Assembly (NCBI GenBank): GCA_003990765.1
Contig: RBNJ01000165.1
Coordinates: forward strand, 1-38,226
Source of the DNA: Jimgerdemannia flammicorona
Taxonomy: Eukaryota
Length of the DNA: 38,226 nucleotides
Direction: 5' to 3'
Made by a program: the position numbers and the translations under genes. This document shows, one piece after another, positions 6,518-37,976 of the stretch (the stretch's first letter is position 1; every line of letters starts with the position of its first letter). Below the pieces are notes generated by a model. That model saw only the letters and a list, made by a program, of their open reading frames with translations. It was not told the DNA's origin and did no database searches.

Positions 6518-6549
6518 AGGATGGGCTCTGGTATATATCATTATTCTTT

Positions 6550-9500: not shown

Positions 9501-10052
9501 GAGTGTCAGCAGGGGCTTGGCTGGGACCTTTGGCTGAGTGGCTGACAGGTGGTTGGAATCGGAGAGGAGTGGAACTGGGCAGGCATCTGGTCTTGGAGTG
9601 CTGAGGTACAGAGGTGGCTCCCTCCCAAGTACTGGGTGGTATGGTGGAGAATGTTGTGGAGGAATGTCATGCTGAATTTCCACTCAGAGCATTTAGTAGA
9701 GGATGGACAATTTGAGTGTGAGGAGTGCTTTGATGTTGGGCAAGCTGGGGGTTATGTACAGATGCCGAAACATTGGCTGAGAGAGTGTGAGGTGTTGGGG
9801 GAATTTTGGGCTGAGATAGGGGATAGACTGGGTACTGGGCATCAGCTGGTGTGGGAGGGGGGTTGCTGGAAGAACTTCAAATCTCGGCTTGTGGGTGGGG
9901 TGGGAGATAGTTGGCTCACTGTAGGATGGGTGTTAGCAGTATGGGTGGGACTGGCAGGACATTGGCTTTTCGTATTTGAGGAAGGGTAGCAGTTGGGGCT
10001 ACATGAGAAGGTATTGAGGTGGTGGGTGGGTTGGGGACCTCAGGGGGGATGA
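6550..10052 (+). pseudogene. LINE-B ORF2: APE endonuclease, reverse transcriptase, C-terminal Zn finger
   Basis: NVNG, GDFN, RIDW, SDH (APE); PGEDG, WRPIMLLN, LDQEKAYD, GVPQGDPLSP, FADD, YLGI (RT); CEEC..HWLREC. Start is ATA at 6550 where copy A has ATG; 3' end approximate. Confidence 0.93.
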
Positions 10053-10212: not shown

Positions 10213-10245
10213 AATAAAGGAAGGGAGTCCAAGTGACTAAAAAAG

Positions 10246-10278
<33 letters not shown>
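10213..10278 (+). terminator. Polyadenylation signal and genomic poly(A) tail of LINE-B
   Basis: AATAAA at 10213-10218; A-tract 10239-10278 with one G. Confidence 0.85.
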
Positions 10279-10281
<3 letters not shown>

Positions 10282-10290
10282 GTTCTTTTA

Positions 10291-11484
10291 TTACTGGCCA
10301 TGATATTTCTTAAGTCAGTTTCGATGAATGGTGGTGGGGATTATTGTGCCTGAGGGTTTTCATAGCCAAAAGGTAGTTCCTTTTATATCTTGCACAAGGT
10401 AAGGTCCTTCCCACTTAGGCTCCAGTTTTCATGACCATGAAGCTTTAACCATATTCTGATACACTAGGACTTTGTCTCCTATCTTGATAATCTCTAAGAG
10501 TTTGTGGGTCTTTTCCACATTCTTCCATTGTAGTGTCTGCACCTTCGTTATGTAATCCTCAGCCTTCTTCCTGATTTAGTATAGTCTCTGTATTTCCATG
10601 TCCACATGTTTCCATATGGCATCTCCATTGGATGACAAGGTTCCCTGAAAACATTCTTCTCCGAATAGCATTTCTCAAGGGGTAAAGTGGGTACTTTGTG
10701 ATCGGATATCCCGAAGAGCAGATAATGCTATTGGTAGATAGTAATCCCAGTTCTTGTAGTTATCGCAGATCTTGGCAATAATGTTCTTGAGGGTTTTGTT
10801 GGTCCTTTCTACTTGTCCATTTCCTTGAGAGTGATATGCTGTGGTCCGAATATACTGGATCTTGTACTTCTTGTAGAGAACTTCGAAGAACTGGTTCACA
10901 AATTTGGTTCCTCTATCTGTAGTTACTTATGTTGGGGTCTTGAACTGGCAGATGATTTCCTTGTGGAAGAAATCAGCGATTGACTGTGCATTGGCTTCCA
11001 TAAGGGGTCCCACTTCTATCCATTTTGTAAAGAGGTCTATGATGATGATGATGTATCAGTTACCAGTCAAGGTCAAGGGTAGGGGGCTGATTATATCCAT
11101 TGCAATGTGGGTGAATGGTACTGGTTCTATGTGTGCTGATCCTGGGGCTTGATTTCGTTGGTCTTGATTCTGTTTCTGGCATTTGTCGCAGGTCTTGATG
11201 AATTGTCTGATATCTTCCTCCATCCCTGGCCACCATATTGTTCTTCTTGCCTTATCGTATGTGTTTGTTCCTCCTAGATGGCCAAGTTTGTATACTGATT
11301 TCATTGCTTGCTCCTTTTTGTATTCTGGTATAACTAGTAGTTTTCCTTTCTTCAGTGTTTCTCTATCAGTTTCGAATTTTTTCCATGTTCTGTTGATAAT
11401 CATTTGTGTCTATTCTTCCAGATGTTGGGGCATCTTTCGCTGTCCCAGGTATTTGATAATTCCATAGTAGAGCTCCTTATTCAT
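10291..11484 (-). pseudogene. D1 ORF2: stand-alone integrase (~397 codons, with stops)
   Basis: Own ATG at 11484 overlapping the ORF1 stop; GHLG..CDKC, IAMD, TDRG, QVERTN, KWEGPY; single frame to TAA 10293-10291. Confidence 0.85.
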
Positions 11485-14400
11485 AGTGATTTTGTGGGGG
11501 TGGGGTCCTTTGGGGTATCCGTGAGAGGAAATCTGCATTGGCATTGGTTCTTCCAGAGCAATGTACAATGGTTACATCATAAGCTTGTAACTTCATTATC
11601 CATCTGGCATAGATTCCTTTGGGTTGTCCAGTTGTCAGTAGCCAGGTAAGAGCTGAGTGGTCCATTTGGATGGTAAAGTGTCTTTCAGCCAGGTAGTAGT
11701 GGAACTTTTCTATGGCCCAGATGACTGCGAGGCATTCCAACTTGTAGGATTTGTATTCTTTTTCAGCTCCTCGGGTTCTGCGGCTGAGGTATGCAATGAT
11801 ATACTCCACTTTATCTTTCTTTTGAGCTAGGACTGCTCCTAGTCCTTGTGCGCTTGCATCAGTCTGTAGGATGAATTCTTGAGTCCAGTCAGGTCTTCTG
11901 AGGATGGGTGCCTGGGTCAGTCTGACCTTGAGTTTGTCAAATGCTTTTTGTTGTCTGCCAGTCCACTGGAACTTGGTATCCTTCTTGTTAAGTTCATAGA
12001 TTGGTCCTGTAATATTAGAGAATCCTCTAATAAATCTGTGATAATAGGAGGTGAGTCCCATGAAGGCTTGGGCTTCCGTAACAGTGGTGGGTCTTGGGTA
12101 TGCTACCACTGCTTGTATCTTGAGGGGGTCTGTGTGTGTTCCATCTTGGTTGATGATATGGCCGAGATAGGAGATCTTGATTTCTGCGAACTTGCACTTC
12201 TTGGGTTTGATGTAAAGGCCATGTTGTCTTAGTCTCTCCATTATCTGCTGTATGTGCTGCAGATGTTCCTCAGGTGTCTTGCTATAGATGATTACATCAT
12301 CGACATAGACCATCATCCATCTTTCCATATTATAGCGGAAGATTTTGTTCATCATTTGCTGGAAGCTTGCTAGTGTATTGCACATTCCAAATGGCATTCA
12401 TAGGTAGATGTGGGTTCTGTCTGGAGTAATGAAAGCTGACTTTTCACTTGCCATGTTTGTAAGTCCGATTTGGTGGAATCCTGAGTATAAGTCCAATGTG
12501 CTGTAGTACTGTACTTCATCTCCTAGTGTTATGAGGATATCATTGATGAGGGGCAGTGGTTGGCGATCCTTCTTGGTAACCATGTTGAGCTTTCTGTAGT
12601 CAACACAGAGTCTTGAGGCGAATTCTCCAGGCTTGCTACCTTTTTTCGGAGCTAGTACAACAGGTGAGGACCAGGGGCTGCTTGCTTCTTTAATGATGCC
12701 GGCTTCTTCCATCTGCTTGATTTCTTCTCTGAGCCATTCTTGGTAGGCTGGTGGGACAGGTCTTGCCTTCTGATAAATTGGTTCAGTGTCTCCAGTATCT
12801 ACCTCATGATAGTAGTGTGGAGTCTTTCCCTTGATATCCTTGAAATCTGTGGCAAGGATATCCTCAAATTCATGGAGTATTTTCTTGAGTACTTTCTTGA
12901 GTGGAAATTCATTTCCAATGGTGTAGCTGTGCTTGCTCATGTTTTCCTCCTTCTTGTGCTCAAGTTCAGTGATCTTGATATTGGCAAATACTCCTCTTCC
13001 TGTGGATCCAAATCCTTTCTTTCCTCTTCTTGTTTCCTCCAGCTTCTTAACTTCTATGATCTTTGGTTGTAGGATCGGGAAGATCAACATTTGCACCAAT
13101 CGGTCCTTCTTCTTGACTGAAAATGGGATTGTAGGATTGTGATTCCTAGCGATGAGTAGAATTTCTCTGGTATAGTCTGAATCGATGACTCCTCCTTCAA
13201 TTGTAATATCACTTCTAGCCAGGCTGCTTCTTGTCTTGAGAATCCCAACATGATCCTTTGGGATGGTCATCTCCAATCCAGTTGCAAGTAGGGTGGTTGT
13301 CTGGGGTTCCAGTACAGTCTCTTCTACTGTAGCAATGTCCATTCTAGCTGCATTTTCTGACTTGTATTCAAGCAAGACTGCATCAGGGTGGATCTTTCGA
13401 ATCTTGACCTTGATTTCTTCTTCATCATCACTGTCCTCCAGGAGAGCTGGTGGTTCGTCATCTTCCTCCTTCTCTTCTTCTCTGATCTGTTTTTCGAGAG
13501 CTTTCTGCCTTCTTTCCTGGTGGATCTTCCTGATTCTGATGGTGCACTGGTAGCAATCATTGACGTGCTCCATGCAGTACATCCTGATTCCATGAGGACA
13601 GACTCCTTGTGGGGCATAGCCTTCTGCAATCTTCTTGTACCATTCTTCTTCACTCATCCATCCGACTTTCTTCTTCTTTGGAGTAGTCACCATATAAGCT
13701 TCCTCTTGCTTGCTCTCTTCTTCCTCCATGTTGGGCAGGACTCCTTTGTTGACATTGATGGGAATTTGTATCTTCTGTCTCCAGTAGGTGATCTGCATCT
13801 TCTGGGCATTGAGATCAATTACTGCCTTGGCTTTGTGAAGTCATTGATTGCCAATGAGGATGTCATAGTTGGTGGCATTGGTTATGATTACATCTACTGG
13901 GATGGTTGCTCCTCCAATCTTGATGGGAACATCTCAGATCTTTCCCAGAGGTGTGGCTCTTGTACCATCAGCTGTGATAAACACTAGCTTAGTTGCTTCT
14001 TCTACATTCCAACCTAAGTGGTCTGCTGCCTTCTTGCTGAGGAGATATCCTCCTGCTCTCATATCAATGATGGCTTCAAAGATTCTATCTTCGATTTGGC
14101 ATATTGCATAAGCAGAGGTTTTGCGATTGTCCTCACTTTCTTCTCCTGAGTCCTCTTGAGCATTATTGGCCTCGGTTATCTTCCATCCTTGTTTCTTAGT
14201 TGTTTCTGCAAGTCCAAACCCCATTTGCTGTCTGAATGTTGGGATTTCTGCAAGCTGACCAAAGGTTGCATTGACTTTTTGTTGGCTGAGGTCCTTGAAG
14301 ATATCATACTTAAAGGTCTTGGTCTTGCAGAGCTTCTTTTCTTTTTCTCCTTCACTGGCTGGAGTGGTTCCTCAGATGATATCTTGAACTGCTTGCTCCA

Positions 14401-15469
14401 GCTCTGTATCTTGGTCCATCTCTTTGGCTTGGCTTTCTGTAGCAGTTTTCATCTGCTTTTCCACTGGGTTCTTCTTGGGTCTTCCTAGTGGTCTCTTGTA
14501 GGGCTCTTTGCGAGCATCCTTCTTGGTGATCTGAGCAGGATAGGTCTCTCATTCTTCTTCATCAGAATCTCCAATCTCCTCAAAGGTAATTGTATTGGCC
14601 TGCTCCTTGTTTCATGTGGCATTGCTTGGTTGAGCCTTGCGCTTGGTTTCGCTCATGCATTCATAGGAGTAGTGGCCTTCTTCTCCACAAGTATAGCAGG
14701 TATCTTTCTTCTTGTCTGAGGTAGTGGCGAACTTCTGAACAGGGCGGCAGTCTCTTCCTTGAATTTCCTTTACCACATCTCCCAGGTGGGCAGTCATTTC
14801 AGCAAACCTTTTGGCGAGTTCCTCTATAGGGTCACTGTTCTTCTGCTGCTCTGTAGCTTTTGGCTGAGGTGTGTTTCAATTGATCATTGTGGTAGGGATC
14901 ACACTGGTTGCCTTCGGTGCCTTGATTCTGACTCCTGTGATCCTTTCCATTGTATAGTCTTGTGGATGTCTGGCTATCCAGTATCGCTGAGCATAGGTGA
15001 CCTTCTGTGGCAGATCCAGAATCACTGGTGATGAGCGGATGGCCATGGCTATTTCTGGGTAGACTCCTTTTATGAAGGTTGCTTCGGCTACTTGATCCCG
15101 GATGGCAGCAGCATAATCTGCAAGGATTATCTGATATTAAATTCTGGTATAGAATGTGTTTGGATGCTCACTCATTCCTTGGCATATTGTATTGAGCTGA
15201 TCCTTCAGGGCTTGCTTGATCTCATCTGTATAATATGTATTTCGGAGCCAGGTCTTCTGTGCTGTCAGTACAGCATTGGCATTATTTCCTGCATGGGTTG
15301 CGACTGTAAATGCTGCTCTGGCAGGGCCTTGTAGGCTGAAGGGCATGAGGGCTACTTGCTGTGCTGCTGTCAGGGTCCTTACAGTGGCATACTGCTCGAA
15401 ATCATCAATGAAGGTGATGATTGATTCATCTGAGGTATATCCATGGATTACTGGTGGTCTCATATCTAT
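11477..15469 (-). pseudogene. D1 ORF1 polyprotein gag-PR-dUTPase-RT-RNase H
   Basis: One frame throughout: CCHC knuckle CYTCGEEGHYSYEC, protease AIIDMRA (D2 retains DTG), dUTPase ~13414-12998 (TRSSLA, GVIDSDY, RGKKGFGSTG), RT YVDD, RH LQTDAS..NADFLSR; stop 11479-11477. Confidence 0.92.
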
Positions 15470-15562
15470 CTTGTCTGGATATTGGGACTTGGTTTGTATG
15501 GTTGTTCGGGTGGTGGTGGTTGTTCGTTGTTCAGCTTGAAAGTGAGGGATTCATCTTGAATC

Positions 15563-15580
15563 ACCAGCCAATAGGCACCA
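15563..15580 (-). promoter_or_regulatory. Putative primer binding site of D1
   Basis: TGGTGCCTATTGGCTGGT 3 nt after the LTR end; matches D3 site; cognate tRNA not identified. Confidence 0.7.
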
Positions 15581-15583
15581 AGT

Positions 15584-16070
15584 TATAACGTAGCAGATGC
15601 TTACTCTTGAAAGTATGTTGGATTTCTGTATCTTGAAAACTTGACTATTCTGACTCTTGCTGAGTCTCTTGAAGTTACAGGGGAGGGTGGGTGAGTTTGA
15701 AGTGTATCTGCCCACAGGCTTACTAGTTCCTTTGCTATCTCTTTGCTTTGAACTATTTCGATCTGAGATTTATTCACTCAAAGATACTGGGTTATTTATA
15801 CAAGTTTTGCTAGCTATGAGATGGTTACTGGGTTATATGGCTAAGTTATGAGTCATTTAACACTTTGCGAAATGTTTCAGCAGTTATGAAATGCTATACT
15901 ATATCAGGAAGCTCGATCTTGCACTTTGCGAAATATTTAGCAAGTTGCGAAATATTTAGCAAGTTGCGAAATTGAGGACTATTAACTATGTGGCTATACT
16001 ACTTTGGGACTGGGTGTGATCAAGTGTCGATTCCCTATTTCCTTCTTCCAAATCTGGTTATACCGTCACA
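15584..16070 (-). repeat. D1 5' LTR (487 bp, U3 type alpha)
   Basis: TGTGACG...CGTTATA termini; aligns along its length with 31254-31720; 19-bp tandem unit TTGCGAAATATTTAGCAAG at ~15926-15971. Confidence 0.9.
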
Positions 16071-16130: not shown

Positions 16131-16617
16131 TATAATGGTTGATCCAAATTAGTAATATAAATCAGGAGAATAGACATTTGATTGCAGTACCTGAATCCAA
16201 TTCTCAAATATAGTATATTCTTATAAAAAGCAGTTATATTTAATATATGGAAACTTTAACAGATGTTAAAGTATTTACAGATATTAAAGTATTCACAGAT
16301 ATTAAAGTATTTACAGATATTAAAATATTCAAAGATATTAAAGTATTCACAGATATTAAAGAATGACTCATTGAAAATATAGTCATAACTTAGCTACCTT
16401 ATAGCCAGCAAACTTGTATAAATATCCTCAGTATCTAGAGTAAATAAACCTCAGATTGAAATAGTTCAAAGCAAAGAAAAAGTAAGAGAATTAGTAAGTC
16501 TGTAGGTAGATATACTTCAAACTCACTCACTTCTGCATCCTGAAGACTCTGTAGAGTCAAGTTTTCAAGATACAGAAATCTGACATACTTATATAGTTAT
16601 GTATCTACTACATTATA
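16131..16617 (+). repeat. D2 5' LTR (487 bp, U3 type beta)
   Basis: TATAATGG...CATTATA, the mutated form of TGTGACGG...CGTTACA; U3 resembles 37493-37740; followed by decayed PBS TAGTATCTATTGG. Confidence 0.82.
16259..16361 (+). repeat. 18-bp tandem repeat (~5.7 copies) in D2 U3
   Basis: Unit ACAGATATTAAAGTATTY starting at 16259, 16277, 16295, 16313, 16331, 16349. Confidence 0.9.
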
Positions 16618-18674
16618 ACTTAGTATCTATTGGCTTGTAATTTAAGATGAATCTCTCACTTTTAAGCTGAATAATAAACAATTACTACCATCTGAACAAC
16701 TATACAAATCAAACCAAGACATCTAGACAAGATAGATATAAGACTACTAGTATTCTATAATTATACTTCAGATGAATCAATCATCATCTTTATTGATGAT
16801 TTTGAGCAATATGCTACTATAAGGACTCTGACAGTAAGACAGCAAGTAGCCCTCATATCTTTCAGTCTCTGAGGATCAGCAAGTGTAGTATTTATAGCTA
16901 TAACCTATATGGGAAATAATGATGATGTCATGCTAGTAATACAGAAGATCTGGCTCTAAACCACCTATTAATAGATGATATCAAACAAGCTCTAAAGGAT
17001 TAGCTCAATACAATATGCCAAGAAATGAGTAAGAATCTATACATATTCTATATCAGAATCTGATATTAGATAATCCTTGCTGATTATACTAATGCTATCT
17101 AAGATCAAGTAGCTGAAGCAACCTTTATAAAAGGAGTTCACCTAGAGATAGCTATAGCTATCTGTTCATTATAAGTAGTTCTGGACCTACTACAAAAGGT
17201 CACCTATGTCTAGTGATACTAGATAGCTAGATATCTATAAGACTATATAATAGAGAGAGTCACTGAAGTTATAATTGAAGTACCTAAGGCAATCAGCATA
17301 ATCTCCACCATAGTGATTAATCAAAATACACCTCAGCTAAGAGCTAGAGAGCAATAGAGAAACAGTAACTCTATAGAGGAATTTCCTAAGAAGTTTGCCA
17401 AAATAACTGCTCATTTTGAAGATATGATAAAGGAAATTAGAGGAAGAGACTGCCACCTAGTTCAGAAGTTTGCCACTATCTTAGACAAGAAGAGAAATAT
17501 CTACTATATATGTAGAGAAGAAGGCTGCTACTTTTATAAATATATAAGCAAAACTAAGGATAAGGCTCAGCCAAGCAATGCTACTTGAAATAAGGAACAG
17601 GTCAACACCATCACCTTCAAGGAGATTGGAGAAGCCGATAAAGAAGAATGGAAAGCCTACTATACTAAGACTGTTAGGAAGAATGTCTATAAGTAATTTT
17701 ACAAAAGACCACCAGAGAGACTCAAGAAAAACCCTGTGGAAAAACAAATAGAGACTGCTATAGAAAGCCAAGTTAAAGAAATAAATCAAGATATGGAACT
17801 GAAATAGGCTGTTTAAGATATCATTTGAGGACCTACTCTAGTCAGTAAAGGAGAAAAGGAGAAAAAGCCTTGCAAATTTAAGACCTTTAAGTATGATATC
17901 TTCAAAGATCTCAGCCAATAAAAGGTCAATACAACTTTTGGCCAGCTGGTAGAAATCTCTATATTTAGATAGCAAATGAGATATGGACTTGCTAAGACAA
18001 CTAAGGAATGAGGTTGAAAGATAACTGAGACCAATAATGTTCAAGAAGACTCTGGAGAAGAAAGTGAATTCAATCACAAGACCTCTGCCTATATAACCTA
18101 TCAGATTGAAGATAGAATCTTTGAAGCCATTATTGATACTGGGGCAGAAGAATGTCTTCTCAATAAGAAAGCAGCAGACTGTCTAGATTGAGAGGTTGAA
18201 GAAGTAACTAAGTTGATATTCATCACAGCAGATAGTATAAGAGCTAAATCTCTAGAAAAGATCTGGGATATTTCCATCAAGTTTAGAAGAGCAACCATCC
18301 CAAGAGATGTGATCATAACTAATACTACCAACTATAATATCCTCATTGGCAACTAGTGGCTTCATAAAGCCAGGACAATAATTGACCTAAAAGCCCAAAA
18401 GATACAGATCATTTACTGAGATCAGAAGATGTAAATTCTCATTAATATCAACAAAGAAGTACTATCTGAGATAGAGGAGAAAGAAAGCAAGTAAGAAGAA
18501 GTCTATATAATGACTACTCAGAAAAATTAAAGAGAACTGGTGTAAGAAGATTGCAGAAGAATATACACTACAAGAAGTCTGTCTCTATAGAATTAAGATA
18601 TACTGTATAGAGTATATTAATGATTGCTACCAGTGTATCAGCAGTATCAAGAAGATCTATATAAAAAAAGACAG

Positions 18675-19890
18675 TTGTCAGTAACTCCCTCTGCCTCCTA
18701 CAACCTTGGGACCTCTCCCACAGCCCCTTGTCAATATAAACATATCTCTCATCAACAAACTCTAAGTGTGTTAACTCCACATATACCTTTTAAGCCTTTG
18801 CCCTACACTCCACCACATCACTCAACTCCTCCAGTGCCTCCAACAGGTCCTCTTCCTCCTTCTCACTTCTCTTTACCCTAGTCACCTTACATACAAAGAC
18901 TCTCCACATTATTACCAGAGACCAATCACATGCCTTGTCAGTAGCCTCTCTCTCTGCCAGTCAAATCCAGACATCAACATTCCCTGTCCAGAAGGTTATT
19001 CCTTTTCAGACCCTAAACCCTATATCAACTAACTCAGCCATGACCTCCTCAACTCTCCTCCTCATCTCCACAGTAGTTACCATAAGCACTTTCTTCACCA
19101 GGAGCTACACCACTCTGAGATTCCATCTCAAGTACTACTATTAGGATACACACCTCTTCAACTATCAACCCAGCCTTCAGCACCTCCTCTAGCAGCCCTG
19201 CCCCTCAAAGTCCACCTCTACTTCTTCTAGGTTATTCAGGAACTTAACAGATGCTGCACCTTCCACCTACTTCACAATCAGCCCCAGGACTATTTTTGCC
19301 ATCACTACTAAGCCCCTGAAGCACAGAGTGACTGTGAATTCTGAGATTGACTTCTTGAGTAATAGTGCCACCACTAGTTCCATTACACTATTAGCCAGAT
19401 CACTAGGCCTCATGCTTTTCCCACTACTTAGTCCACCCATCTAGATTTTTTTCCTGATTACCTATCATGCTCTCATCAGCAGTCACTTCCTCAGCTGATA
19501 CACCACCAGTCCCACTACTCTGGCCCCCCAGAAGGACACTCTCTTGAGGCTGTTACTTTGCAGGCTTTGGTATCTCCTTGCTTCTTTTCAGCCAACTCTC
19601 TAGTCCAGCTTCTTGCTGACCTCCCTTCATCTTATCTACAAAGCTTGCTCTCTCAGTCTCTTGCCAGCCAGCACTACCTCCTCCCCTACTATGTCCACCT
19701 GTCAGCAGGCCCCTCATGCTTCCCCCCAAGCTGGGGCCTCTTCTTACATACTGCCAGTTGAATGCTGCCCAGTATATACCTCAGAATACTCATCAGTCAC
19801 TGTAATACTAGTAGTTTTTCTCCAAGAACTATATTGTAAGTATTGCCAAAAGGTTGTATAACCTGAATATTATCAGAGAAAGTATCCTGG
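18675..19890 (-). mobile_element. L1/Tx1-like LINE copy C: 5' UTR and first part of ORF1 only, degenerate
   Basis: Nucleotide similarity to LINE-A ~1010-2260 (e.g. gtgactgtgaattctgagattgacttcttgagtaat); YVYIDKGLWERSQGCRRQRELLT matches A/B ORF1; boundaries approximate. Confidence 0.85.
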
Positions 19891-22800
19891 TTATTGGATA
19901 TTATCATCTATAGTAAGACACTAGAAGAATATCTGCTGTATATCTAGCAGATAATAGAGAAGCTAAGGAAGTATGATCTTTATATTAAGCCTAAGAAGTA
20001 TAAGTTTACAGAAATCAAAATATCCTATCTTGATGATATCATCAACTAAGATGAAACACACACACAGACCCCCTCAAGATTCAAGCAGTAGCAGTATACC
20101 CAAGGCCCACCACTATCATGAAAGCCCAAGCCTTTATAGAACTTGCCTCATACTACTGCAGATTTATCAAAGAATTCTTTAACATTATAGACTCAATCTA
20201 CAAACTCAATAAAAAGGATGTCAAGTTTCAATAGATTAGCAGGTAATAAAAAGTATTTGATGAACTCAAGATCAGACTAATCAAAGCACCCATCCTCAGA
20301 AGACCAAATTGAACTCAGGAATTTATCCTGTAGACAGATATAAGTATGTAAGAACTAGGAGCAGTTCTGGTCTAAAAGAAAGACAATGTAGAATATGTCA
20401 TTATATATCTCAGCTGAGGAACTTAAGAAGCTGAAAAGGAGTATAAATTCTATAAGTTGGAATATCTTACAGTTATCTAGGCTATAGAGAAGTTCTACTA
20501 CTATCTTATCAGAAGATACTTTACTATCCAAACAGACCACTCAGCTCTTACTTAGCTACTAACTATAGGATAATCTAAAGAAATCTATGTCAGGTGGATT
20601 ATAAAGTTGTAAGCTTATAATGTAACCATTATACACTATCTCAGAAGAACTAATACCAATACTGATACCCTCTTATAGATAGTCCAAAGAACCCCCAACC
20701 AGTAAATCAACTATGAATAAAGAACTCTACTATAGAATTATTATCTATCTGAGATAGCAAAAGATGCCCCAACATCTGAAAAATAGACAAAAATAATTAT
20801 TAATAGAATATAGAAACAATTCAAAACTGATGAAGAAACATTACAAAAAAGAAAGCTACTAGTTATATCTAAATATAAGAAGGAGCAAGTAATGAAATCA
20901 GTATATGAACTTGACTATCTAGGAGGAACAAATATATATGATAAAGCAAGAAGAATAATGTAGTGGCCAGGAATAGAGAAAGATATCAGACAATTTGTCA
21001 AGACTTATAACAAATGCCAGAAATAGAAATAAGATGAATAAGATCAAAGCCCAGAATCAGTACATATAGAACTAGTACTCTTTGCATGTATTACAATGGA
21101 CATGATTTACTCTCTACTCTTGACTTTTGACTAGTATCTGATATATCATTGTCATTATAGATCTTTTTACAAAATAAATAGAGGCAGGACCCCTCAAAGA
21201 AGCTAATATACAGTCAATTGCTAATTTCTTCTACAAAGAAATCATCTGCCAATTCAAGACCCCATTGCAAGTAACTACAGACAGAGAAACAGAATTCATG
21301 AATCAGTTCTTTGAGGTTCTCTACAGGAAGTATAAGATCCAGTATATTTGGACTACAGTCTATCACCCTCAGGAAAATGGACAAGCAGAAAGGACCAACA
21401 AGACTCTCAAGAATATCATCATCAAGATCTGCAATAATTATGAAAACTGAGAGCACTATCTGCTAATAGCATTATCTGCTCTCTGAGATATCCAATCACA
21501 AAGCACCCATTTCACTCCTTGAGAGATGTTTTTTGGAGAAGAAAGTTCTCAAGGAACCTTATCATCTAATAGAGATACTATATGGAAACATATAGACACA
21601 GAGATATAGAGACTATACCAAATCAGAAAGAAGGCCAAGGATTACATAACCAAGGTATAGGCACTATAACAGAACAATATAGAAAAGATTCACAAGCCAT
21701 TGTTGGCAAGGGTGTTGAGCACTGGGCACGGGAAGCAGCTATCACTGGGCCAAAGGGAAATGGGCAGCAGTGGTAGCGAAGACTATTACTTTGATTTTTT
21801 TTTTTTTTTTGTCTGAATATCTTTGATGATATTCTATCTCCATATTTTTCGAGGTAATTGTGACGCAGTCGGAATTTATATTAATACAGCGTCTTGTCCA
21901 GATAAATACTAATCCAGTCATGCACACTACAAAAACGAGTGCTTGTGCCTGTGCTTGTCGAAGGGCACAATAGACATGTGTAATTACCGCTGGGAGGGGA
22001 CCACAGATGGTTCTACTGCGGAAAGGCGAGCAAATAATTTTGAGAGATGCGATAGATTTTTACCTGGTTGCGACTTGGTTTTTCGGAGACTTGGTCGTTT
22101 TGTAACCTTGCTGATTGCAGTCATGATTTTTGATGGTATCATCGGAACTTTGTCAACGGCTTCGGAATTGTAAAGTAGTTCACAAAATTTTGTTGTCAGT
22201 ACACGCAATTAAAGACTAAATTACAAATAAGGCTGTGCTCGTTTATAGTGATTTATATTAACTGCAAGAAACGATTTGCACTTCTATGCCGCATCACGTG
22301 CGAAATGGTATCATGTGCCGTGCGAGTTGATTAAAAAATCCCTTTTCCACTTCACACAGCTATCTCATTTCTTTACAATGACCCAACTTACACCGCCATC
22401 TGCATTCTCATATTGCCCTACGACACCGTACAGGACATCGTGATCACTGGAAAAATCCAAAACTGGCTATCATTTACAGGAGTTAAATTCTGCTAGTGTA
22501 TATGGCGGACTGGTCGAGTAAAACAGTGCTGTTGTCCACGAATGGAAGGTCGCAAAACTGGTGAGAAGAACTATTGAACATAAAATTTGAAAACTTTTCA
22601 AGCTCTCTAAATATGTTATCGATGGCATTTCTCATCAAATTCCCAGACGATGTAGTGACCAGTATTAGCTCCAGTCATCTCATCCATATTTGCAATTCTG
22701 TAGTTATTCGGTGTCGGAATTTCTGAGCGCCGCACAAAAACAATAGGGCCACGTTAGCGCGTTGATTGAGAATGACAAGAATCGGGGATTAGTGTTATTG

Positions 22801-27300: not shown

Positions 27301-29492
27301 AATTTAAAATATAACATTTGCTTTTATTATAAGGATCATAAGGAAATCTCATAACTCATCAATATAACGCGAACAGCACATACCTGCATATTCATTTAGC
27401 CACAAATCTAAATTTGGCGTTTGGGGAGAGTGGGCAGCCGACCCTTCCGGCATTTGAAGAATGTTGGTGGTTAACGATTCCGGTTGGGGGGAGGGTGTTT
27501 GGGATGTGCTGGAGATAAACACTTCCGTCTGCTGAGAGGGCGTTTGGAGGATGTTTGCATTCAACGCTTTCGGCTGCGAGGAGGGCGTTTGGGGCTTGTT
27601 GTCGGTCGACGCTCCCCGCTGCCGAGAGCGCATTTGGAGGGTGTTGGTCGACGCTTCCGTCTCCTGAGAGGACGTTTGGGGGATGTTGTAGATCGACGCT
27701 CCCGGCTGCAGGGGAGGTATTTGGAGGATGTTGGCCGCCAACGCTTTCGGTTGTGGGGAGGGTGTTTGGGGGATGCTGGAGATCAACGCTTTCGTCTTCT
27801 GAGAGGGCATTTGAGGGGTATTTGCATTCAACTCTTCCGGCTGCGGGGAGGGCGTTTGGGGGTTATTGTCGGTCGACGCTCCTGGCTCTATGGAGGGCAT
27901 TCGGAAGATATTTTCGGTCAACGCTTCCGTCTGCTGAGAGGAGGTTTGGAGGGTATTTGCATTAAACGCTTCCAGCTGCGAGTAGGACATTGGGGGGTTG
28001 GTGTAAGCCGACGCTCCTGGCTGGAGGGGGGTTATTTGAAGGGTGCTGGCCGTCAACGCTTCCGGCTGCGTTTGGGGAGTGGAGGTCAACGCTTCTGGCG
28101 AAGGGGAGGGCGTTTGGGATGTGTTGGCGTTCAATGCTTCCGCCAAGGAGGAGGGTTGCTGACGAGGTCGTGGTGGAAATAGGGGCGCTTCGACATCGGA
28201 AGACAAGAAGGAATGCTGGGTCGGTGAGCAAGCAGATTAAAGGCAAACGGACAGAATATGTCAGTGGCGTATACCTGCTATGGAAAAAGAGTGTATTTGC
28301 AAACGATGAAATGACCTACTTTAAGCAATTCCCTGGCGGAAGCGCGCTGTATATGATCTGGATCCAAACATCGATCAACGAAGCCCGCCAGCAGGCTATC
28401 CATATTCTGGGGATAATGAGGCCGACCTTCGTCGATGATCTTTCGCTTGAGCTAATTTGAGGTGCACAGAAAAATGTGAATTTATTAATCATATAATGAA
28501 ATGCATTCTGCAACATCGACAAATAACATTTGAAAACAAACCTCTTCCTCCTCTAGGCGATCGTCTTCGAATGGCGCCTTGCCGTAGTTGAGAATCTCGA
28601 GGACGACGATGCCTAGTGCCCAAATGTCAACATTTTGTTTGATGAACTCGCCTTTGCAGATTTCGGGTGCCCAAAACAATATGTCGCCAGCCACTTCGGA
28701 TGCCGAATTTACAAGTGGTTTCAGGGAACTGAAGCCGAAGCCACCTGAATGAGGGATTTAGTAGGTGGAGGTGGGGTTTAGAGGAAAAGTAGGAATGATT
28801 AGAATGTGTGAGGCATCGGCCGGGTGGTACCCAGATTTGTCGGATGAAATAAATGGGTAAGGTATATACCGATCACGATGGCGTTGTCTACGCCAAGGAA
28901 GACGTTTTCGCTTTTGATGTCGCGATGGATGTAACCGTGCTTATGAATTTCCGCGAGGCTTGATACGAGCTGTGAGCCGGATGGTAGGAATGATGGACGA
29001 GACAAATTATTTGGGGTAACACACAAAGCCACGTAGCACGCAACAGGGAGTACAAAGAACTACACTGACCCTGTTGAGGATGAAGACAATTTGCGCCAAA
29101 GTAACGCAGTTTTCGAAACAGTACTGTTTCAGGGTCCCGCCGTCGTAATAGGGCGTCACGAGAAAGGCGTAGCAATTGTGGATGTAGATGCTGTGTAGTC
29201 GCAGAATATTTGGGTGTAGCGCGCATTTGGTCATGGCGTTACATTCGTTTTGAATTAGCTTATTGGGTATTGCGAACGGTTTTCCGTCCTTATCTCGCTC
29301 GATGACCAGGTACTTTTTGATGGCCACGTTCCGGCTCGCATCGCCGAACTCGCGGCAGTGATACACCTCACCCTGTGCCGAGCGCCATGTGGGTCTTTTG
29401 GCGCTGAGGCCACTATAAATGGGGTGCGGGTTGGACCGATCTATGCGCACGCCGGGCACCGTGAGAATAAATAATGGTATAAGCGTCGACAT
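24337..29492 (-). CDS. Spliced host gene: kinase(-like) domain 1 + 15-aa repeat linker + 8 RI-type LRRs + kinase domain 2 (~1244 aa; both ends uncertain)
   Basis: Exons 29492-29070, 28969-28870, 28744-28542, 28451-28320, 28215-27384, 27188-27105, 27020-26937, 26840-26757, 26672-26589, 26501-26418, 26325-26242, 26148-26065, 25977-25900, 25800-25442, 25356-24337; all introns GT-AG and phase-compatible. Kinase 1: VAIKK, HRDIKSEN, GFG, WAPE, DIWALG. Kinase 2: GAGRFA, VALK, HNDLHPGN, DFG, YRPPE, SDIYCLG, RPT. Further 3' introns and an exon toward ~23844 are possible. Confidence 0.8.
25900..27188 (-). repeat. Array of eight LRR exons (seven of 84 bp, one of 78 bp; all phase 1-1)
   Basis: Consensus N.IG..GA..LA.SL..N.TL..L.L, ribonuclease-inhibitor/NLRC3-like 28-aa repeat; one repeat per exon. 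Confidence 0.9.
27420..28142 (-). repeat. Coding minisatellite, ~45-bp/15-aa unit, ~17 degenerate copies
   Basis: ALNANTSQTPSPSPE, ALTASTLQITPLQPG, ASTDNNPQTPSPQPE, ALNANILQTPSQQTE etc. in exon 5. Confidence 0.88.
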
Positions 29493-31253: not shown

Positions 31254-31720
31254 TGTGATGGTATAGCCAGATTTGAAAGAAAGAAATAAGGAACAGACAC
31301 TTGATTGCACCCAGTCCCAAAGTAGTATAGCCACATAGTTAACAGTCCTCGATTTCACAACTTGCTGAATATTTTGCAAAGTGCAAGATCAAGCTTCCTG
31401 ATATAGTATAGCATTTCGCAACTTGCTAAATATTTTGCAAAGTGTTAAATGACTCATAACTTAGCCATATAACCCAGTAACCATCTCACAGCTAGCAAAC
31501 TCATATAAATAACCCAGTATCTTCGAGTGATAAACCTCAGATCGAAATAGTTCAAAGCAAAGAGATAGCAAAAGAAACTAGTAAGCCTGCAGGCAGATAC
31601 ACTTCGAACTCACCCACCCTCCCCTGTAATTTCAAGAGACTCTGTGAGAGTCAGAATAGTCAAGTTTTCAAGATATAGAAATCCAACGTACTTTCAAGAG
31701 TAAGTGTCTGCTACATTACA
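31254..31720 (+). repeat. D3 5' LTR (467 bp, U3 alpha)
   Basis: TGTGATG...CATTACA; TATAAATA at ~31504; matches D1 LTR minus about one 19-bp unit. Confidence 0.92.
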
Positions 31721-31723
31721 ACT

Positions 31724-31741
31724 TGGTGCCCATTGGCTGGT
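31724..31741 (+). promoter_or_regulatory. Putative primer binding site of D3
   Basis: TGGTGCCCATTGGCTGGT 3 nt after the LTR. Confidence 0.7.
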
Positions 31742-31822
31742 GATTCAAGACAAATCCCTCACTTTCAAGCTAAACAATGAACAACTGCCACTATCCAAAC
31801 TAAGCCCCAATACCCAGACAAG

Positions 31823-34800
31823 ATGGACATGAGACCACCAGTATTCCATGGATATACCTCAGACAAATCAATCATTACCTTCATTGATGATTTCGAGCAG
31901 TATGCTGCTGTAAGGACCCTGACAGCAGTACAGCAAGTAGCCCTCATGCCCTTCAGCCTACGAGGCCCTGCCAGAGCAGCATTCACAGCCACAACCCATG
32001 CAGGAAATGATGCCAATACTATACTGACAGCATAGAAGACCTGGCTCTGAAATATATATTACACAGACAAGATCAAGCAAGCCCTGAAGGATCAGCTCAA
32101 TACAATATGCCAAGGAATGAGCAAGGATCCAAACACATTCTATACCAGAATTCAATATCAGATAATCCTTGCAGACTATACTGCTGCTATCCAAGATTAA
32201 GTAGCCAAAGCAACCTTCATGAAAGAAGTCCATCCAGAAATAGCCATGGCCATCTGCTCATCACCAGTGATTCTGGATCTGCCACAGAAGGTCACCTATG
32301 CTCAGCGATACTGGATAGCCAGACATCTACAAGACCATATAATGGAAAGGGTCACAGGAGTTAGAATCAAGGCACCCAAGGCAACTAGTGTGATCCCTAC
32401 CACAATGATCAATCGAAACACACCTCAGCCAAAAGCTACAGAGCAGCAAAAGAACAGTGACCCTATGGAGGAACTCACCAAGAGGTTTGCTGAAATGACT
32501 GCCCACCTAGGAGACATGGTAAAGGAAATTCAAGGAAGAGACTGCCACCCTGTTCAGAAGTTTACTGCCACCTCAGACAAGAAGAAAGGTACCTGCTATA
32601 CTTGTGGAGAAGAAGGCCACTACTCCTATAAATGCATGAGCAAAACCAAGTGCAAGGCTCAACTAAGTAATGCCACACAAAACAAGGAGCAGGTCAATAC
32701 AATTACCTTTGAGGAGATTGGAGATTCTGATGAAGAAGAATTGGAGGCCTATTCTGCTCAGACCACCAAGAAGGATGCTTACAAAGAACCCTACAAGAGA
32801 CCACCAGGAAGACCCAAGAAGAACCCAGTAGAAAAGCAGATGGAAACGGCTACCGAAAGCCAAATGGAAGAGATGGACCAAGATATAGAACTGGAACAAG
32901 CAGATCAAGATATTATCCGAGGAACCACTCCAGCCAGTGAAGGAGAAAAAGAAAAGAAGCTTCGCAAGACCAAGACCTTCAAGTATGATATCTTCAAGGA
33001 CCTCAGTCAACAAAAGGTCAATGCAACTTTTGGTCAGCTCACAGAAATCCCAACATTCAGACAGCAAATGAGGTTTGGACTTGCAGAAACAATGAAGGAA
33101 CAAGGATGGAAGATAACTGAGGCCAATAACGTTCAAGAGGACTCAGGAGAAGAAAGTGAGGACAATTGCAAAACCTCTGCTTATGCAATATGCCAAATCG
33201 AAGATAGAATCTTTGAAGCCATCATTGATATGGGAGCAGGAGGATGTCTCCTCAGCAAGAAGGCAGCAGACCACCTAGGTTGGGACGTGGAAGAAGCAAC
33301 TAAGCTGGTGTTCATCACAGTCGATAGCACAAGAGCTACACCTCTGGGAAAGATCTGAGATATTCCCATCAAGATTGGAGGAGCAACCATCTCAGTAGAT
33401 GTAATCGTAACCAATGCCACCAACTATGACATTTTCATTGGCAATCAATGGCTTCACAAAGCCAAGGCAGTAATTGATCTCAATGCCCAGAAGATGCAGA
33501 TCACCTACTGGGGACAGAAGATACGAATTCTCATCAATGTTAACAAAGGAGTCCTGCCCGATATGGAGGAAGAAAAGAGCGAGCAAGAGGAAGCTTATAT
33601 GGTGACTACTCCAAAGAAGAAGAAAGTTGGATAGATGAGTAAAGAAGAATGGTGCAAGAAGATGGCAGAAAGCTATGCACCACAAGGAGTCTGCCCTTAT
33701 GGGATCAGGATGTACTATATGGAGCATTTCAATGATTGCTACTAGTACACCATTGGAATCAGGAAGATCCACCAGGCAAGAAGGCAGAAAGCTCTCGAAA
33801 TACAGATCAGGAAAGAAGAGAAGGAGGAAGATGATGAACCACTAGCCCTCCTGGAGGACAGTGACGATGAAGAAGAAATCAAGGTCAAGATTCGAAAGAT
33901 TCACCCTGATGCAGTCTTGCCAGAATACAAGTCAGAAAATGCAGCCAGAATGGACATCACTACAGTAGAAGAGACTGTACTGGAACCCCAGACAACCACC
34001 CTACTCACAACTGGACTGGAGATGACCATCCCAAAGGAACATGTCAGGATTCTCAAGACAAGAAGTAGCCTGGCTAGAAGTGAAATTACAATTGAAGGAG
34101 GAGTCATCAATTTAGACTACACCAGAGAAATTCTACTCATTGCTAGGAATTACAATCCTACAATCCCATTTCCAGTCAAGAAGAAGGACCGATTGGTACA
34201 AATGTTGATCTTTCCGATCCTACAACCAAAGATCATAGAAGTTAAGAAGCTGGAGGAAACAAGAAGAGAAAAGAAAGGATTTGGATCCATAGGAAGAGGA
34301 GTATTTGCCAACACCAAGATCACTGAACTTGAGCATAAGAAGGAGGAAAACACAAGCAAGCACAGCTACACCATCGGAAATGAATTTCTACTCAAGAAAG
34401 AACTCAAGAAAATACTCAACGAATTCGAAGATGTCCTTGCCACAGATTTCAAGGATATCAAAGGAAAGACCCCACACTACTATCACGAAGTAGATACTGG
34501 AGACACTGAACCAATTTATCAGAAGGCAAGACCTGTCCCGCCAGCCTAATGAGAATGGCTCAGAGAAGAAATCAAGCAGATAGAAGAAGCTGGCATCATT
34601 AAAGAAGCCAGCAGCCCCTGGTCCTCACCTGTTGTACTAGCCCCAAAAAAAGGCAGCAAGCCTGGAGAATTCACCCAAGACTCTGTGTCAACTACAGAAA
34701 ACTCAACATAGTTACCAAGAAGGATCACCAATCACTGCCCCTCATCAATGACATCCTCATAACACTGGGAGATGAAGCACAATACTACAGCACCTTGGAC

Positions 34801-35814
34801 TTATACTCAGGATTCCGCCAAATCAGACTCACAGACATGGCAAGTGAAAAGTCAGCTTTCATCACTCTAGATGGAACCTATGTCTACCTACAAATGCCAT
34901 TTGGAATGTGCAATGCACCAGCAAGTTTTCAGTGAATGATGAACAAAATCTTCTGCTATGACATGGGAAGATGGATGATGGTTTACATTGATGACGTAAT
35001 CATCTACAGCAAGATACCTGAGGAACATTTGCAGCACATACAGTAGATAATGGAGAGACTAAGACAAAATGGCCTTTACATCAAACCCAAGAAGTGCAAA
35101 TTCGCAGAAATCGAGATCTCCTATCTCAGCCACATCATCAACTAAGATGGAACATACATGGACCCCCTTAAGATACAAGCAGTGGCAGCATACCCAAGAC
35201 CCACCACTGTTATTGAAGCCAAAGCCTTTATGGGACTCGCCTCCTATTATCACAGATTTATTAGAGGATTTTCTAATATTGCGGGACCAATCTATGAACT
35301 TAACAAGAAGGATACCAAGTTTCAGTAGACTGGAAAACAACAAAAAGCATTTGATGAACTCAAGGTCAGACTGACCCAGGCACCCATCCTCAGAAGACCA
35401 GACTGGACTCAAGAATTCATCCTATAGACTGATGCAAGCACACAAGGACTAGGAGTAGTCCTAGCTTAAAAGAAAGATAAAGTGGAGTATGTCATCACAT
35501 ACCTCAGCCATGGAACCCGAGGAGCTGAAAAAGAATATGAATCCTATAAGTTGGAATGCCTTGCAGTCATCTGGGCTGTAGAAAAGTTCCACTACTACTT
35601 GGCTGGAAGACACTTCACTATCCAAATGGACCACTCAGCTCTCACCTGGCTACTGACAACTAGACAACCCAAAGGAATCTATGCCAGATGGATAATAAAG
35701 TTGCAAGCTTATGACGTAACCATCGTATATCACTCTGGAAGAACCAATGCCAATGCAGATGCCCTCTCATAGACATTCCAAAGGACCCCACCCCCACAAA
35801 ATCGCCATAAATAA
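31823..35814 (+). pseudogene. D3 ORF1 gag-PR-dUTPase-RT-RNase H
   Basis: MDMRPPVFHG start; CCHC knuckle; AIIDMGAG; dUTPase ~33878-34296; YIDD at ~34984; 1-bp deletion near 34675 relative to D1; homologous stop TAA 35812-35814. Confidence 0.92.
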
Positions 35815-37009
35815 GGAGCTCTACTACAGAATTATCACATACCTGGGACAGCAAAAGATGCCCCAACATCTGGAAGAATGGATACAAACGATTATCAACA
35901 GAACATGGAAACAATTCGAAACTGATGGAGAAACACTGAAGAAAGGAAAACTACTAGTCATACCAGAACACAAGAAGGAGCAAGCAATGAAATCAGTACA
36001 TGAACTTGGCCACCTAGGAGGAACAAATACATATGACAAGGCAAGAAGAACAATATGGTGGTCAGGGATGGAGGAAGATATCAGACAATTCATCAAGACC
36101 CGTGACAAATACCAAAAACAGAAATAAGACCAAAGAAATCAAGCCCCAGGATCAGCACACATAGAACCAGTACCATTCGCCCATGTAGCAATGGATGTAA
36201 TCGGCTCTCTACCCTTGACTTTGACTGGCAACCGATACATCATCATCATTGTAGACCTTTTTACAAAATGGATAGAAGCAGGACCCCTTATGGAAGCCAA
36301 TGCACAGTCAATCGCTGATTTCTTCTACAAGGAAATTATCTGTCAGTTCAAGACCCCAACACAAGTAACCACAGATAGAGGAACAGAATTTGTGAACCAG
36401 TTCTTTGAAGTTCTCTACAAGAAGTACAAGATCTAGCATATTCAGACTACATCATATCACCCTCAAGAAAACAGACAAGTAGAAAGGACCAACAAAACCC
36501 TCAAGAATGTTATTACCAAGATCTGCGATAACTATGAAAACTGGGATCACTATCTGCCAATAGCATTATCTGCTCTTTGAGATATCCGATCACAAAGTAC
36601 CCACTTCACCCCTCGAGAAATGCTGTTTGAAGAAGAATGTTCTCAGGGAACCCTATCATCTAATGGAGATGCTGTATGGAAACATGTAGACATGGAAATA
36701 CAGAGACTACACCAAATCAGGAAGAAGGCTGAGGATTACATAACAAAGGTGCAGATACTATAACGGAGGAATGCGGAAAAGACCCACAAACCCTTAGAGA
36801 TTATCAAGATAGGAGACAAAGTTCTGGTGTATCGGAATATGATTGAAGCTTCATGGTCACGAAAACTGGAGCCCAAGTGGGAAGGACCTTACCTTGTGCA
36901 AGATATAAAAGGAACCACCTTTTGGCTACGAAAACCCTCAGGCACAATCATCCCCACTACCATCTACCGAAACAGACTCAAGAAATACCATGACCAGCCA
37001 ATAAAGTAA
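35807..37009 (+). pseudogene. D3 ORF2 integrase
   Basis: Start is ATA at 35807 where D1/D2 have ATG; HELGHLG, VAMD, TTDRGTEF, VERTN, KWEGPY; no chromodomain seen. Confidence 0.85.
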
Positions 37010-37451
37010 TGCAGCTGCCCTCAAGATCACTAGTACTGCCCAATGAGCCATAGAGAGACAGTGGTGTACCACTGAACTACCAACAATGGAGGAATCCTTT
37101 GATAGTATACAGAGTATAGTCCAGACCCACCTGTCACAAATTTCGCACTTCAAGGCCTACCAGACGCGAACCAAGTTCTAGGAGTACTTCAAGCTAGGAC
37201 AACTACTGAATTCAAATCCGAGGATGGGAAAAGAAGACTGGATTAAAGAATGTCAGCTCACCTACACTCAGATCACAATTGCCAAGAGAGTGCACAAATT
37301 ATTCAAAGATGATGAACCAGCTTTAGCTCATCTCCGTGAAGTAATTCCGGGAGATTTTGGACAAATCAGGAGACAACATTGGAAGAACGTAATGGCACAG
37401 ATCACACAGTACAAGGAGATACAAATTGTAGAAGCCTGGGAGTTCGAGTGA
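36990..37451 (+). pseudogene. D3 ORF3, unknown ~153-aa protein between integrase and PPT
   Basis: ATG 36990 overlaps the IN end and is conserved in D1 (10301); one frame to TGA 37451 with three stops (37002 TAA, 37044 TGA, 37179 TAG), each one C>T from a sense codon. Confidence 0.65.
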
Positions 37452-37482
37452 ATAGGATACTTTAGGGATGAATCACCTATTC

Positions 37483-37491
37483 AGGAGGAAG
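37483..37491 (+). promoter_or_regulatory. Polypurine tract of D3
   Basis: AGGAGGAAG 1 nt before the 3' LTR TGTGACGG. Confidence 0.7.
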
Positions 37492-37492
37492 T

Positions 37493-37976
37493 TGTGACGG
37501 TTGATCTGAATTAGTAACATGAAACAGGGAAATTAAACATTTGATCATAGTACCTGAACCCAATTCCCAATATAGTATAGCCTTACAAAATAGCAGTCAT
37601 ATTTCACAAGTGTAGAAACTTTAGCAACCAAAGAAATTCTATAGATGTAAAATATTTCATGATTGTAAAGATCTTAACAAATGTAGAGAATTTACACTTG
37701 TAGAAATTGACTCACAGAAAACGTAGTCATAATTTAGCCACCTTATAGCTAGCAAAACTGTATAAATAACCCAGTATCTTCAAGTGAATAAACCTCAGAT
37801 CGAAATAGTTCAAAGCAAAGAGATAGCAAAGGAACTAGTAAGCCTGCAGGCAGATACACTTTGAACTCACCACCCTCTCCTGCAACTTCAAGAGACTCTG
37901 CGAGAGTCAGAACAGTCAAGTTTTCAAGATACAGAAATCCAACGTACTTTCAAGAGTAAGTGTCTGCTACGTTACA
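37493..37976 (+). repeat. D3 3' LTR (484 bp, U3 beta)
   Basis: TGTGACG...CGTTACA; distal ~230 bp near-identical to the 5' LTR, proximal ~250 bp resembles the D2 LTR instead. Confidence 0.92.

Follow-up and report, generated by a model that had tools for sequence, protein, structure and literature searches.

A probable third gene between integrase and the PPT in a chromodomain-less fungal Ty3/gypsy retrotransposon family

LTR retrotransposons are usually thought to need gag and pol only. Towards the end of the 38,226-nt stretch of fungal DNA analyzed here (the window), a decayed Ty3/gypsy element carries an additional reading frame, interrupted by three stop codons, between the end of its integrase (IN) and the PPT. 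The question raised by this locus is whether the frame is the remnant of a genuine gene and, if so, what its protein might contribute to the element. From the comparison of DNA copies and homologous proteins, we conclude that positions 36990-37451 are very probably a dead copy of a genuine third gene, designated ORF3, which would be a lineage-restricted accessory gene of this fungal Ty3/gypsy family; all of its detectable relatives lie within its own element lineage.

The host of ORF3 is an LTR retrotransposon of the Ty3/gypsy type, designated copy B, which occupies positions 31254-37976. Its 5' LTR (31254-31720, plus strand; TGTGATGG...GCTACATTACA) was delimited by terminal motifs, and its 3' LTR (37493-37976, plus strand) by terminal motifs together with LTR comparison; the last ~245 nt of the 5' LTR are 91% identical to the 3' LTR, and the U3 half differs. 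Both flanks of the element consist of AT repeats. Between the LTRs, an ORF1 relic on the plus strand (31823-35814, with the gag ATG at 31823) corresponds to Gag (CCHC), protease, dUTPase, RT and RNase H according to Pfam and to alignment with L001, a near-intact copy from a metagenome that is described below. It is followed on the same strand, in its own frame, by the relic of an integrase cistron (35807-37009) comprising an H2C2 zinc domain, an rve core and a GPY-type C-terminus without a chromodomain. Over 1259 codons aligned to L001, the ORF1 relic has accumulated 15 stops, along with several indels that shift the frame. The integrase start codon is mutated to ATA in copy B, and the 409 codons of the integrase relic contain 5 stops, namely 4 premature ones and the terminal TAA at 37007-9. 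The decay of ORF3 (3 stops in 153 codons) is in line with that of ORF1 and integrase, and the stops of copy B derive, in comparison with L001, mostly from CGN, CAR and TGG codons. The whole of element B is thus dead, ORF3 has decayed along with the rest, and the window copy of ORF3 is non-functional.

The assignment to Ty3/gypsy is based on Pfam matches to zf-CCHC, aspartyl protease, RVT_1 (2.4e-34), RT_RNaseH (1.1e-34), Integrase_H2C2 (5e-20) and rve, and on the presence of LTRs and a PPT. In copy B, the Pfam order is CCHC zinc knuckle, aspartyl protease, dUTPase (6.7e-21) and integrase core, with RT and RNase H placed between dUTPase and integrase by alignment to L001, and the same Pfam domain order was found in L001. 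Pfam searches detected no chromodomain in the C-terminal parts of the L001 integrase at E <= 0.01 or in the window copy at E <= 1, and the integrase ends about 40 residues past the GPY motif. Judged by its domains, the element is a member of a chromodomain-less, dUTPase-bearing Ty3/gypsy family of a fungus and is not a chromovirus. Two further copies lie in the window. Copy D1, on the minus strand (16070..10287), is 91% identical and includes the beginning of ORF3 (10278..10301, minus strand), where the ATG at 10301 opens the sequence MASNKRTT before a long T run cuts the frame; the conservation of this ATG in D1 had been pointed out from the outset. Copy A (16137-21701; 75-79% identical) stops about 200 nt short of the integrase end, before the position of ORF3. 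Copy B therefore contains the one full-length copy of ORF3 within the window.

In copy B, the translation of the window gives an ORF3 of 153 codons on the plus strand (36990-37451), followed by TGA and interrupted by TAA at 37002-4, TGA at 37044-6 and TAG at 37179-81, without any indel relative to the intact copy in L001. The remaining two sense frames across the same interval contain about 9 stops each, as counted by eye. The ORF3 ATG falls within the last part of the integrase frame, 17 nt before the integrase TAA at 37007-9, so that the two frames overlap by 20 nt. The 3' end of ORF3 is separated by 31 nt from the PPT, AGGAGGAAG (37483-91), and the 3' LTR starts at 37493. As a result, ORF3 occupies 442 of the 471 nt from the integrase stop to the PPT region, which bears out the original description of a frame that fills nearly the whole of this gap and starts within the last integrase codons. 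What remains is a conserved non-coding spacer containing the PPT (37452-37492, plus strand).

A metagenome scan for further DNA copies yielded a single locus, L001, a contig of 6479 nt; none of 48 pattern matches in viral contigs and none of 168 in prokaryote genome contigs was a further copy. L001 contains, in order, an LTR, gag-PR-dUTPase-RT-RNase H (stop at 4617-9), integrase (ATG at 4612, stop at 5836-8), ORF3, a PPT as in B and the start of an LTR. The ORF1 stop is overlapped by the integrase ATG (ATGAATAA), and ORF3, intact at 5795-6256, has its ATG 41 nt upstream of the integrase stop. L001 itself is interrupted by single nonsense codons in gag (771-3) and in the integrase (5074-6), and a fully intact element was not among the copies examined. 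L001 thus confirms a three-cistron layout with overlapping ends at both the ORF1/integrase and the integrase/ORF3 junctions. ORF3 was found in every DNA copy that reaches its position, namely B, L001, the tail of a second copy at the L001 start (1-40) and the start preserved in D1. In B, D1 and L001, ORF3 is always in the +1 frame relative to the integrase and its ATG has an A at -3, and the position of the integrase stop floats, lying 8 nt (D1), 17 nt (B) and 41 nt (L001) after this ATG. At the other end, all three copies that reach it (B, the 3' end of L001 and the second-copy tail) read ...EAWEFE-stop followed by the PPT.

The homologue search was conducted with the window frame read with X at the stops. 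It matched 10 cluster representatives (E 1.3e-62 to 2.6e-29) with 65-77% identity to the window frame and, once cluster members were included, 18 homologues from metagenome protein sets, which are 60-96% identical to P0012, the L001 protein, and come from at least 15 different contigs. Three of them, P0002, P0012 and P0015, are intact 153-aa proteins; intact copies are over-represented in this set, because it stems from gene callers that report only open frames. The conserved methionine is the first residue in 14 of the 18 homologues, and the other 4 begin at M33 or M61, where contig ends or upstream damage are possible causes. The residues found at the window stops bear on the initial proposal that each stop arose by one C>T change, from CAA, CGA and CAG, respectively. 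This proposal fits the third stop, at which Q was present in 17 of 17 homologues and CAG in L001. At the second stop, R was present in all 14 homologues, in agreement with an arginine codon, yet the L001 codon is AGA. The first stop, for which CAA was expected, gave a mixed result (R in 8, Q in 4 and W in 2 of 14). Recurrent changes from R to W, Q, C, H or Y at a few columns of the homologue alignment suggest that many homologue copies may themselves be decaying by CpG-type transitions.

The overlap of the two frames also admits another reading, in which a +1 programmed frameshift joins ORF3 to the integrase and a helical C-terminal extension replaces the chromodomain in some integrase molecules. 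The constant +1 relation of the two frames in B, D1 and L001 agrees with such a shift, as does the lack of stops in the ORF3 frame over the 13 codons preceding the ATG in L001 and about 31 in B, and the yeast elements Ty1 and Ty3, which employ +1 frameshifting, offer a precedent. We nevertheless consider a frameshift unlikely, given that the ATG with its A at -3 is kept in all three DNA copies and is the start of most homologues, that the integrase stop floats, and that a conserved shift site in the overlap was not seen by eye. Integrase-ORF3 fusions are likewise absent from the protein sets, which is a weak argument since gene callers would not predict frameshift products: a HMMER search against 1.84 billion representatives gave 3 proteins only, all of them short members of the ORF3 family, and longer or fused forms of ORF3 numbered 0 of 214 candidates. 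An ORF3 that is translated from its own ATG remains our preferred reading.

To assess selection, the window ORF3 was compared with that of L001 by Nei-Gojobori counts. The two align without gaps over 153 codons (459 nt) at 76% nucleotide identity, and their proteins are also 76% identical. The comparison gave a pN of 0.125, a pS of 0.689 and a dN/dS of 0.07, a value that is only rough because pS is near saturation and two full DNA copies were compared; any effect of the dead phase of copy B would have been to raise it. By contrast, out-of-frame controls on the same DNA gave dN/dS values of 0.86 (frame +1) and 2.97 (frame +2). The differences at codon positions 1, 2 and 3 number 31, 13 and 68, and the synonymous excess is highly significant (Fisher p = 1e-25). 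For the other genes of the same element pair, B and L001, dN/dS was 0.056 for gag, 0.105 for PR, 0.145 for dUTPase, 0.070 for RT, 0.110 for RNase H and 0.077-0.127 for the integrase, so that ORF3 was constrained like the core genes. Together with homologues at E values down to 1e-62, this argues that the frame is not a chance one. Frameshifts, a lack of purifying selection between copies and loss of the ATG had been named beforehand as observations that would speak against a gene; all were checked and none applied, with the dN/dS of window and L001 well below 1 and the ATG retained in all three DNA copies and in 14 of the 18 homologues. The L001 layout, the intact 153-aa homologues and a selection equal to that on pol also sustain the initial suggestion of a three-ORF overlapping layout with the gene of an accessory protein in third place.

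The same data bear on the origin of the frame. Transduced additional ORFs are known in LTR retrotransposons, according to a passage of PMC7264820, and ORF3 might similarly be a host gene fragment transduced once, or a recently captured foreign gene, without a role in the element. Such a capture is very improbable here, as ORF3 occupies the same place in copies that are 24% apart in DNA and in at least 15 contigs, is constrained like pol, resembles the rest of the element in composition (A 33%, GC 45.5%, GC3 0.47) and has no cellular homologue among the 1.84 billion representatives. That the region encodes no protein, being instead an RNA or DNA signal that acts in cis close to the PPT, or a chance open frame, is scarcely credible: the 41 nt between ORF3 and the LTR are indeed more conserved (38/41 identical between B and L001) than ORF3 (76%), as expected for the PPT region, but within ORF3 the differences pile up at third codon positions, the protein is still 76% identical with synonymous sites near saturation, the out-of-frame controls lack the constraint signal, and zero indels occur over 459 nt at 76% identity.

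Since the evidence favors a genuine gene, the properties of its product deserve attention. The ORF3 protein has a mass of about 18 kDa and is hydrophilic (GRAVY -0.58 to -0.65) and not markedly basic (pI 5.7-8.8). No transmembrane stretch was detected in the three intact homologues, in which the maximum Kyte-Doolittle mean over 19 residues is 0.19-0.46, in agreement with the early remark that the product is not env-like; the absence of a chromodomain motif from the frame, noted at the same time, held in Pfam searches. Two AF2 runs, with 10 and 19 sequences, both predicted an all-helical protein of about seven helices at a mean pLDDT of 53 and 49, a low confidence that is explained by the very shallow family alignment (Neff 1.4).

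Searches for remote relatives gave matches below or near the noise. In Pfam, at E values up to 10, no family reached its cut-off for ORF3; HTH_Tnp_Mu_2 (the Mu transposase HTH) appeared below threshold in 2 of 11 members, over residues 5-63, scoring 14.8 and 13.0 bits where 20.5 are required. A PDB sequence profile search gave L-asparaginase only (E 0.05). With the ORF3 model as query, no PDB entry was matched by Foldseek at E <= 0.001, and the top matches, obtained from a model of pLDDT 53, were to the Sap1 DNA-binding domain (E 0.16-0.4, TM 0.20-0.27). A wide VIA-align search with the model reached a best Z of 6.4, which is under the stated noise level for helical models. In the ESM Atlas, the named clusters (phage translational repressor, closterovirus coat, DUF6192) scored 0.93 at most, with 145-151 shared features compared with 170 for typical true family members, and were dismissed as chance; the best unnamed clusters scored 0.95, and the 'recognition' value of 2533 is within the range of real protein families. 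A comparison of ORF3 with the element's own ORF1 by hhalign gave a probability of 0.4%, which also speaks against a likeness of the Q...EFxEYF block to Gag motifs. A tblastn match of residues 28-65 to the R/U5 part of the LTR (31608-31700 and 15696-15604; 39-42% identity with a 7-residue gap, E 0.05-0.19 in a small search space) was missed by the family HMM run without filters, and an ORF3 relative inside the LTR was rejected as a chance result.

Structure prediction with two copies of P0002 gave an ipSAE of 0.48 (0.50, 0.48 and 0.47 in the individual runs), and the best of three controls scored 0.00; the runs had at least 66% of contacts in common, and partner pLDDT was at least 63. In the benchmark of the tool, this ipSAE mark is attained by 21 of 30 proteins with solved paired structures and by 0 of 23 with solved single-chain structures. 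The tool also warns that, of eukaryotic proteins lacking an older solved relative, 1 of 7 passed, and that as many as about 12 in 100 single chains could do so. Such a pass reflects how confident the model is rather than an experimental measurement. In the predicted dimer, the chains meet antiparallel in a symmetric interface, where residues 40-94 of one pack against those of the other around residue 58; the predicted contact residues include 44, 47, 51, 54, 58, 65 and 69. These residues form the best conserved block of the protein, including the near-invariant THL.RISHFKAYQ..TEFQEYFKL. Within residues 40-94, conservation is higher in interface columns than in the rest (0.88 vs 0.74, p = 0.024); against all remaining ORF3 columns, the conservation of the interface is not significantly higher (p = 0.09). 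These models suggest that ORF3 is likely to dimerize, and we give an even chance to the complete picture, a soluble ~18 kDa protein with about seven helices whose residues 40-94 mediate a symmetric antiparallel homodimer.

Selection can act on a transposon gene only by way of the propagation of the element itself. The constraint on ORF3 therefore suggests that its protein is either required for retrotransposition or strongly promotes it. The integrase of this family is a cistron apart from the Gag-Pol polyprotein and has no chromodomain, an arrangement that leaves two jobs open, namely getting the integrase into the particle and choosing targets. The mechanism that we tentatively prefer is that an ORF3 dimer acts as an integrase adaptor, which would bring the integrase to the particle or to chromatin; what links ORF3 to the integrase here is its position alone. 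A bolder version holds that ORF3 is what makes the polycistronic design work, either as a dimeric adaptor that loads or tethers the integrase or as a promoter of reinitiation, similar to the caulimovirus TAV, at both stop/start overlaps. This version is rather improbable; if true, with either the adaptor or the TAV-like factor, it would represent a novel class of accessory protein in retrotransposons, one that arose within the element lineage.

As to how ORF3 might be expressed, ribosomes translating the full-length RNA may, after termination at the integrase stop, resume translation at the ORF3 ATG a short distance upstream. The start/stop geometry of reinitiation after a long ORF is present at both the ORF1/integrase and the integrase/ORF3 junctions. 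A section of PMC10275272 presents pneumoviruses, fungal viruses and the SART1 retrotransposon as documented cases of reinitiation at a start slightly upstream of a stop, and also states that TURBS-type reinitiation is less efficient beyond about 30 nt, a range exceeded by the 41 nt between the ORF3 ATG and the integrase stop in L001. By analogy with these systems, termination-reinitiation is a reasonable possibility for ORF3 that falls somewhat short of an even chance. Expression from a subgenomic or spliced RNA, by analogy with the env-like ORFs treated in PMC7264820, is as probable. Inspection by eye revealed GTAAGT near the U5 end in B and GTAAGC in D1, with neither in L001, and no conserved splice acceptor ahead of the ORF3 ATG, so that splicing is neither supported nor excluded.

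Collectively, these observations describe a fungal Gypsy lineage that keeps a third, lineage-specific gene as strictly as RT and integrase, beside a separate integrase cistron. If its protein is necessary for transposition, ORF3 would extend the repertoire of retrotransposons by a new accessory function and provide a tractable case of a eukaryotic element that expresses three overlapping cistrons. For annotators, a repeat family abundant in the source fungus and in soil metagenomes gains a named ORF that can be tested.

Among known systems, the closest counterparts are the sense additional ORFs between pol and the 3' LTR (aORF-3S), which are known in plants and insects and are mostly env-like, as outlined in a passage of PMC7264820. 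ORF3 shares their position and orientation (integrase, ORF, PPT), lying at 36990-37451 in the window and 5795-6256 in L001 and ending in each about 30 nt before the PPT. It is present family-wide, in all DNA copies that reach the site and in 18 protein homologues, and thus resembles them also in existing as many diverged copies rather than a single transduced one. In contrast to the aORF-3S described in that passage, which mostly bear TM segments and, in Bagy2, are expressed from spliced RNA, ORF3 is fungal, small, soluble and predicted to be helical, has no TM stretch and starts at its own ATG overlapping the integrase end. It likewise has no TM or signal feature of the env-like ORF3 of the errantivirus/Athila type.

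Within fungi, the legend to Figure 3 of PMC2864245 indicates an 'add. ORF' of unknown function for some Gypsy elements, and the same source, in the portion concerned, reports a dUTPase between PR and RT in some basidiomycete elements. Those elements share with the present family an extra ORF of unknown function in a fungal Gypsy setting; they differ in being chromoviruses, and the likeness to ORF3 extends to the description in the legend only. The consulted portion of the large fungal LTR survey PMC3248453 leaves a third ORF unmentioned, and a description of the present protein was not found in the literature searched for a fungal Gypsy ORF3. Bdelloid rotifer LTR retrotransposons, in the relevant part of PMC5408684, likewise have a conserved additional ORF besides gag and pol, in another host kingdom.

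With regard to layout, the cistrons expressed by termination-reinitiation that are treated in a section of PMC10275272 (the second M2 ORF of pneumoviruses, calicivirus VP2, hypovirus CHV1 and SART1 ORF2) have the same out-of-frame ATG shortly upstream of the stop of a long ORF. The present element differs from them in that this geometry occurs at two successive junctions, with an overlap of up to 44 nt, and is known from sequence alone. Taken together, these comparisons place ORF3 among the known kind of 'additional ORF'.

The two LTRs of copy B, the dead Ty3/gypsy element at window 31254-37976, were compared with each other (31254-31720 against 37493-37976), and their similarity was found to be confined to the final ~245 nt, at 91%, with U3 halves that are unrelated. 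The U3 type of the copy B 5' LTR is that of the 5' LTRs in copy D1, a minus-strand member of the same family at 16070..10287 (87.5%), and in L001, a 6479-nt metagenome contig carrying a near-intact related element (78.6%). The U3 type of the copy B 3' LTR is that of the 5' LTR of copy A, another window copy at 16137-21701 (72%), and of the 3' LTR of L001 (72%). Since the copy B and L001 U3 sequences match 5' with 5' and 3' with 3' (L001 LTRs, ~77-560 and 6297-6479), the same discordance is present at two independent loci. Reverse transcription alone should not yield such a pattern, and our best guess is that the LTR-discordant elements are recombinants between two subfamilies. The LTR start motif has an additional exact match at window 4838, and the L001 3' LTR U3 (6396-6479, running to the contig end) holds ~4.5 tandem repeats of the 18-nt unit GATGTAGAGATCTTAGCA.

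The start of L001 (1-76) consists of the final 12 codons (...KTIQTIEAWEFE-stop) of another, different copy of ORF3, the small third gene after integrase, followed by a polypurine tract, which is directly adjoined by the LTR that the main element uses at its 5' end. The arrangement represents either a tandem array with a common LTR or an assembly chimera.

Integrase is encoded in its own cistron in this element family. In L001, the stop codon of ORF1, which encodes Gag, protease, dUTPase, RT and RNase H, is overlapped by the integrase ATG (ATGAATAA, 4612-4619); at the corresponding site of copy B (window 35807-35814), decay has turned this start codon into ATA. CGN, CAR or TGG codons are the source of most of the stops in copies B and D1, and in the alignment of proteins homologous to ORF3, W, Q, C, H or Y recur at arginine columns (5, 50, 60 and 116). 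These changes form a C-to-T and G-to-A decay pattern, of the kind that cytosine deamination leaves. In copy D1, ORF3 is also interrupted after its first 24 nt, by a stretch of ~40 T (window 10240-10286, minus strand) that resembles the poly(A) end of a different retroelement integrated in reverse orientation.

Elsewhere in the window, positions 1-2000 and 5000-10000 are GC-rich (52-58%) and display extreme GC skew of opposite signs (-0.5 and +0.34 to +0.49, respectively), in contrast to the remainder, and a tandem array with a 45-nt period occupies 27449-28047 (at least 7 copies, 65-80% alike).

Between protease and RT lies a dUTPase domain, matched by PF00692 both in the window (~33900-34300; 6.7e-21) and in L001 (ORF1 residues 648-775; 2.7e-28). 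A dUTPase in this position has been described in some basidiomycete Gypsy elements (PMC2864245).
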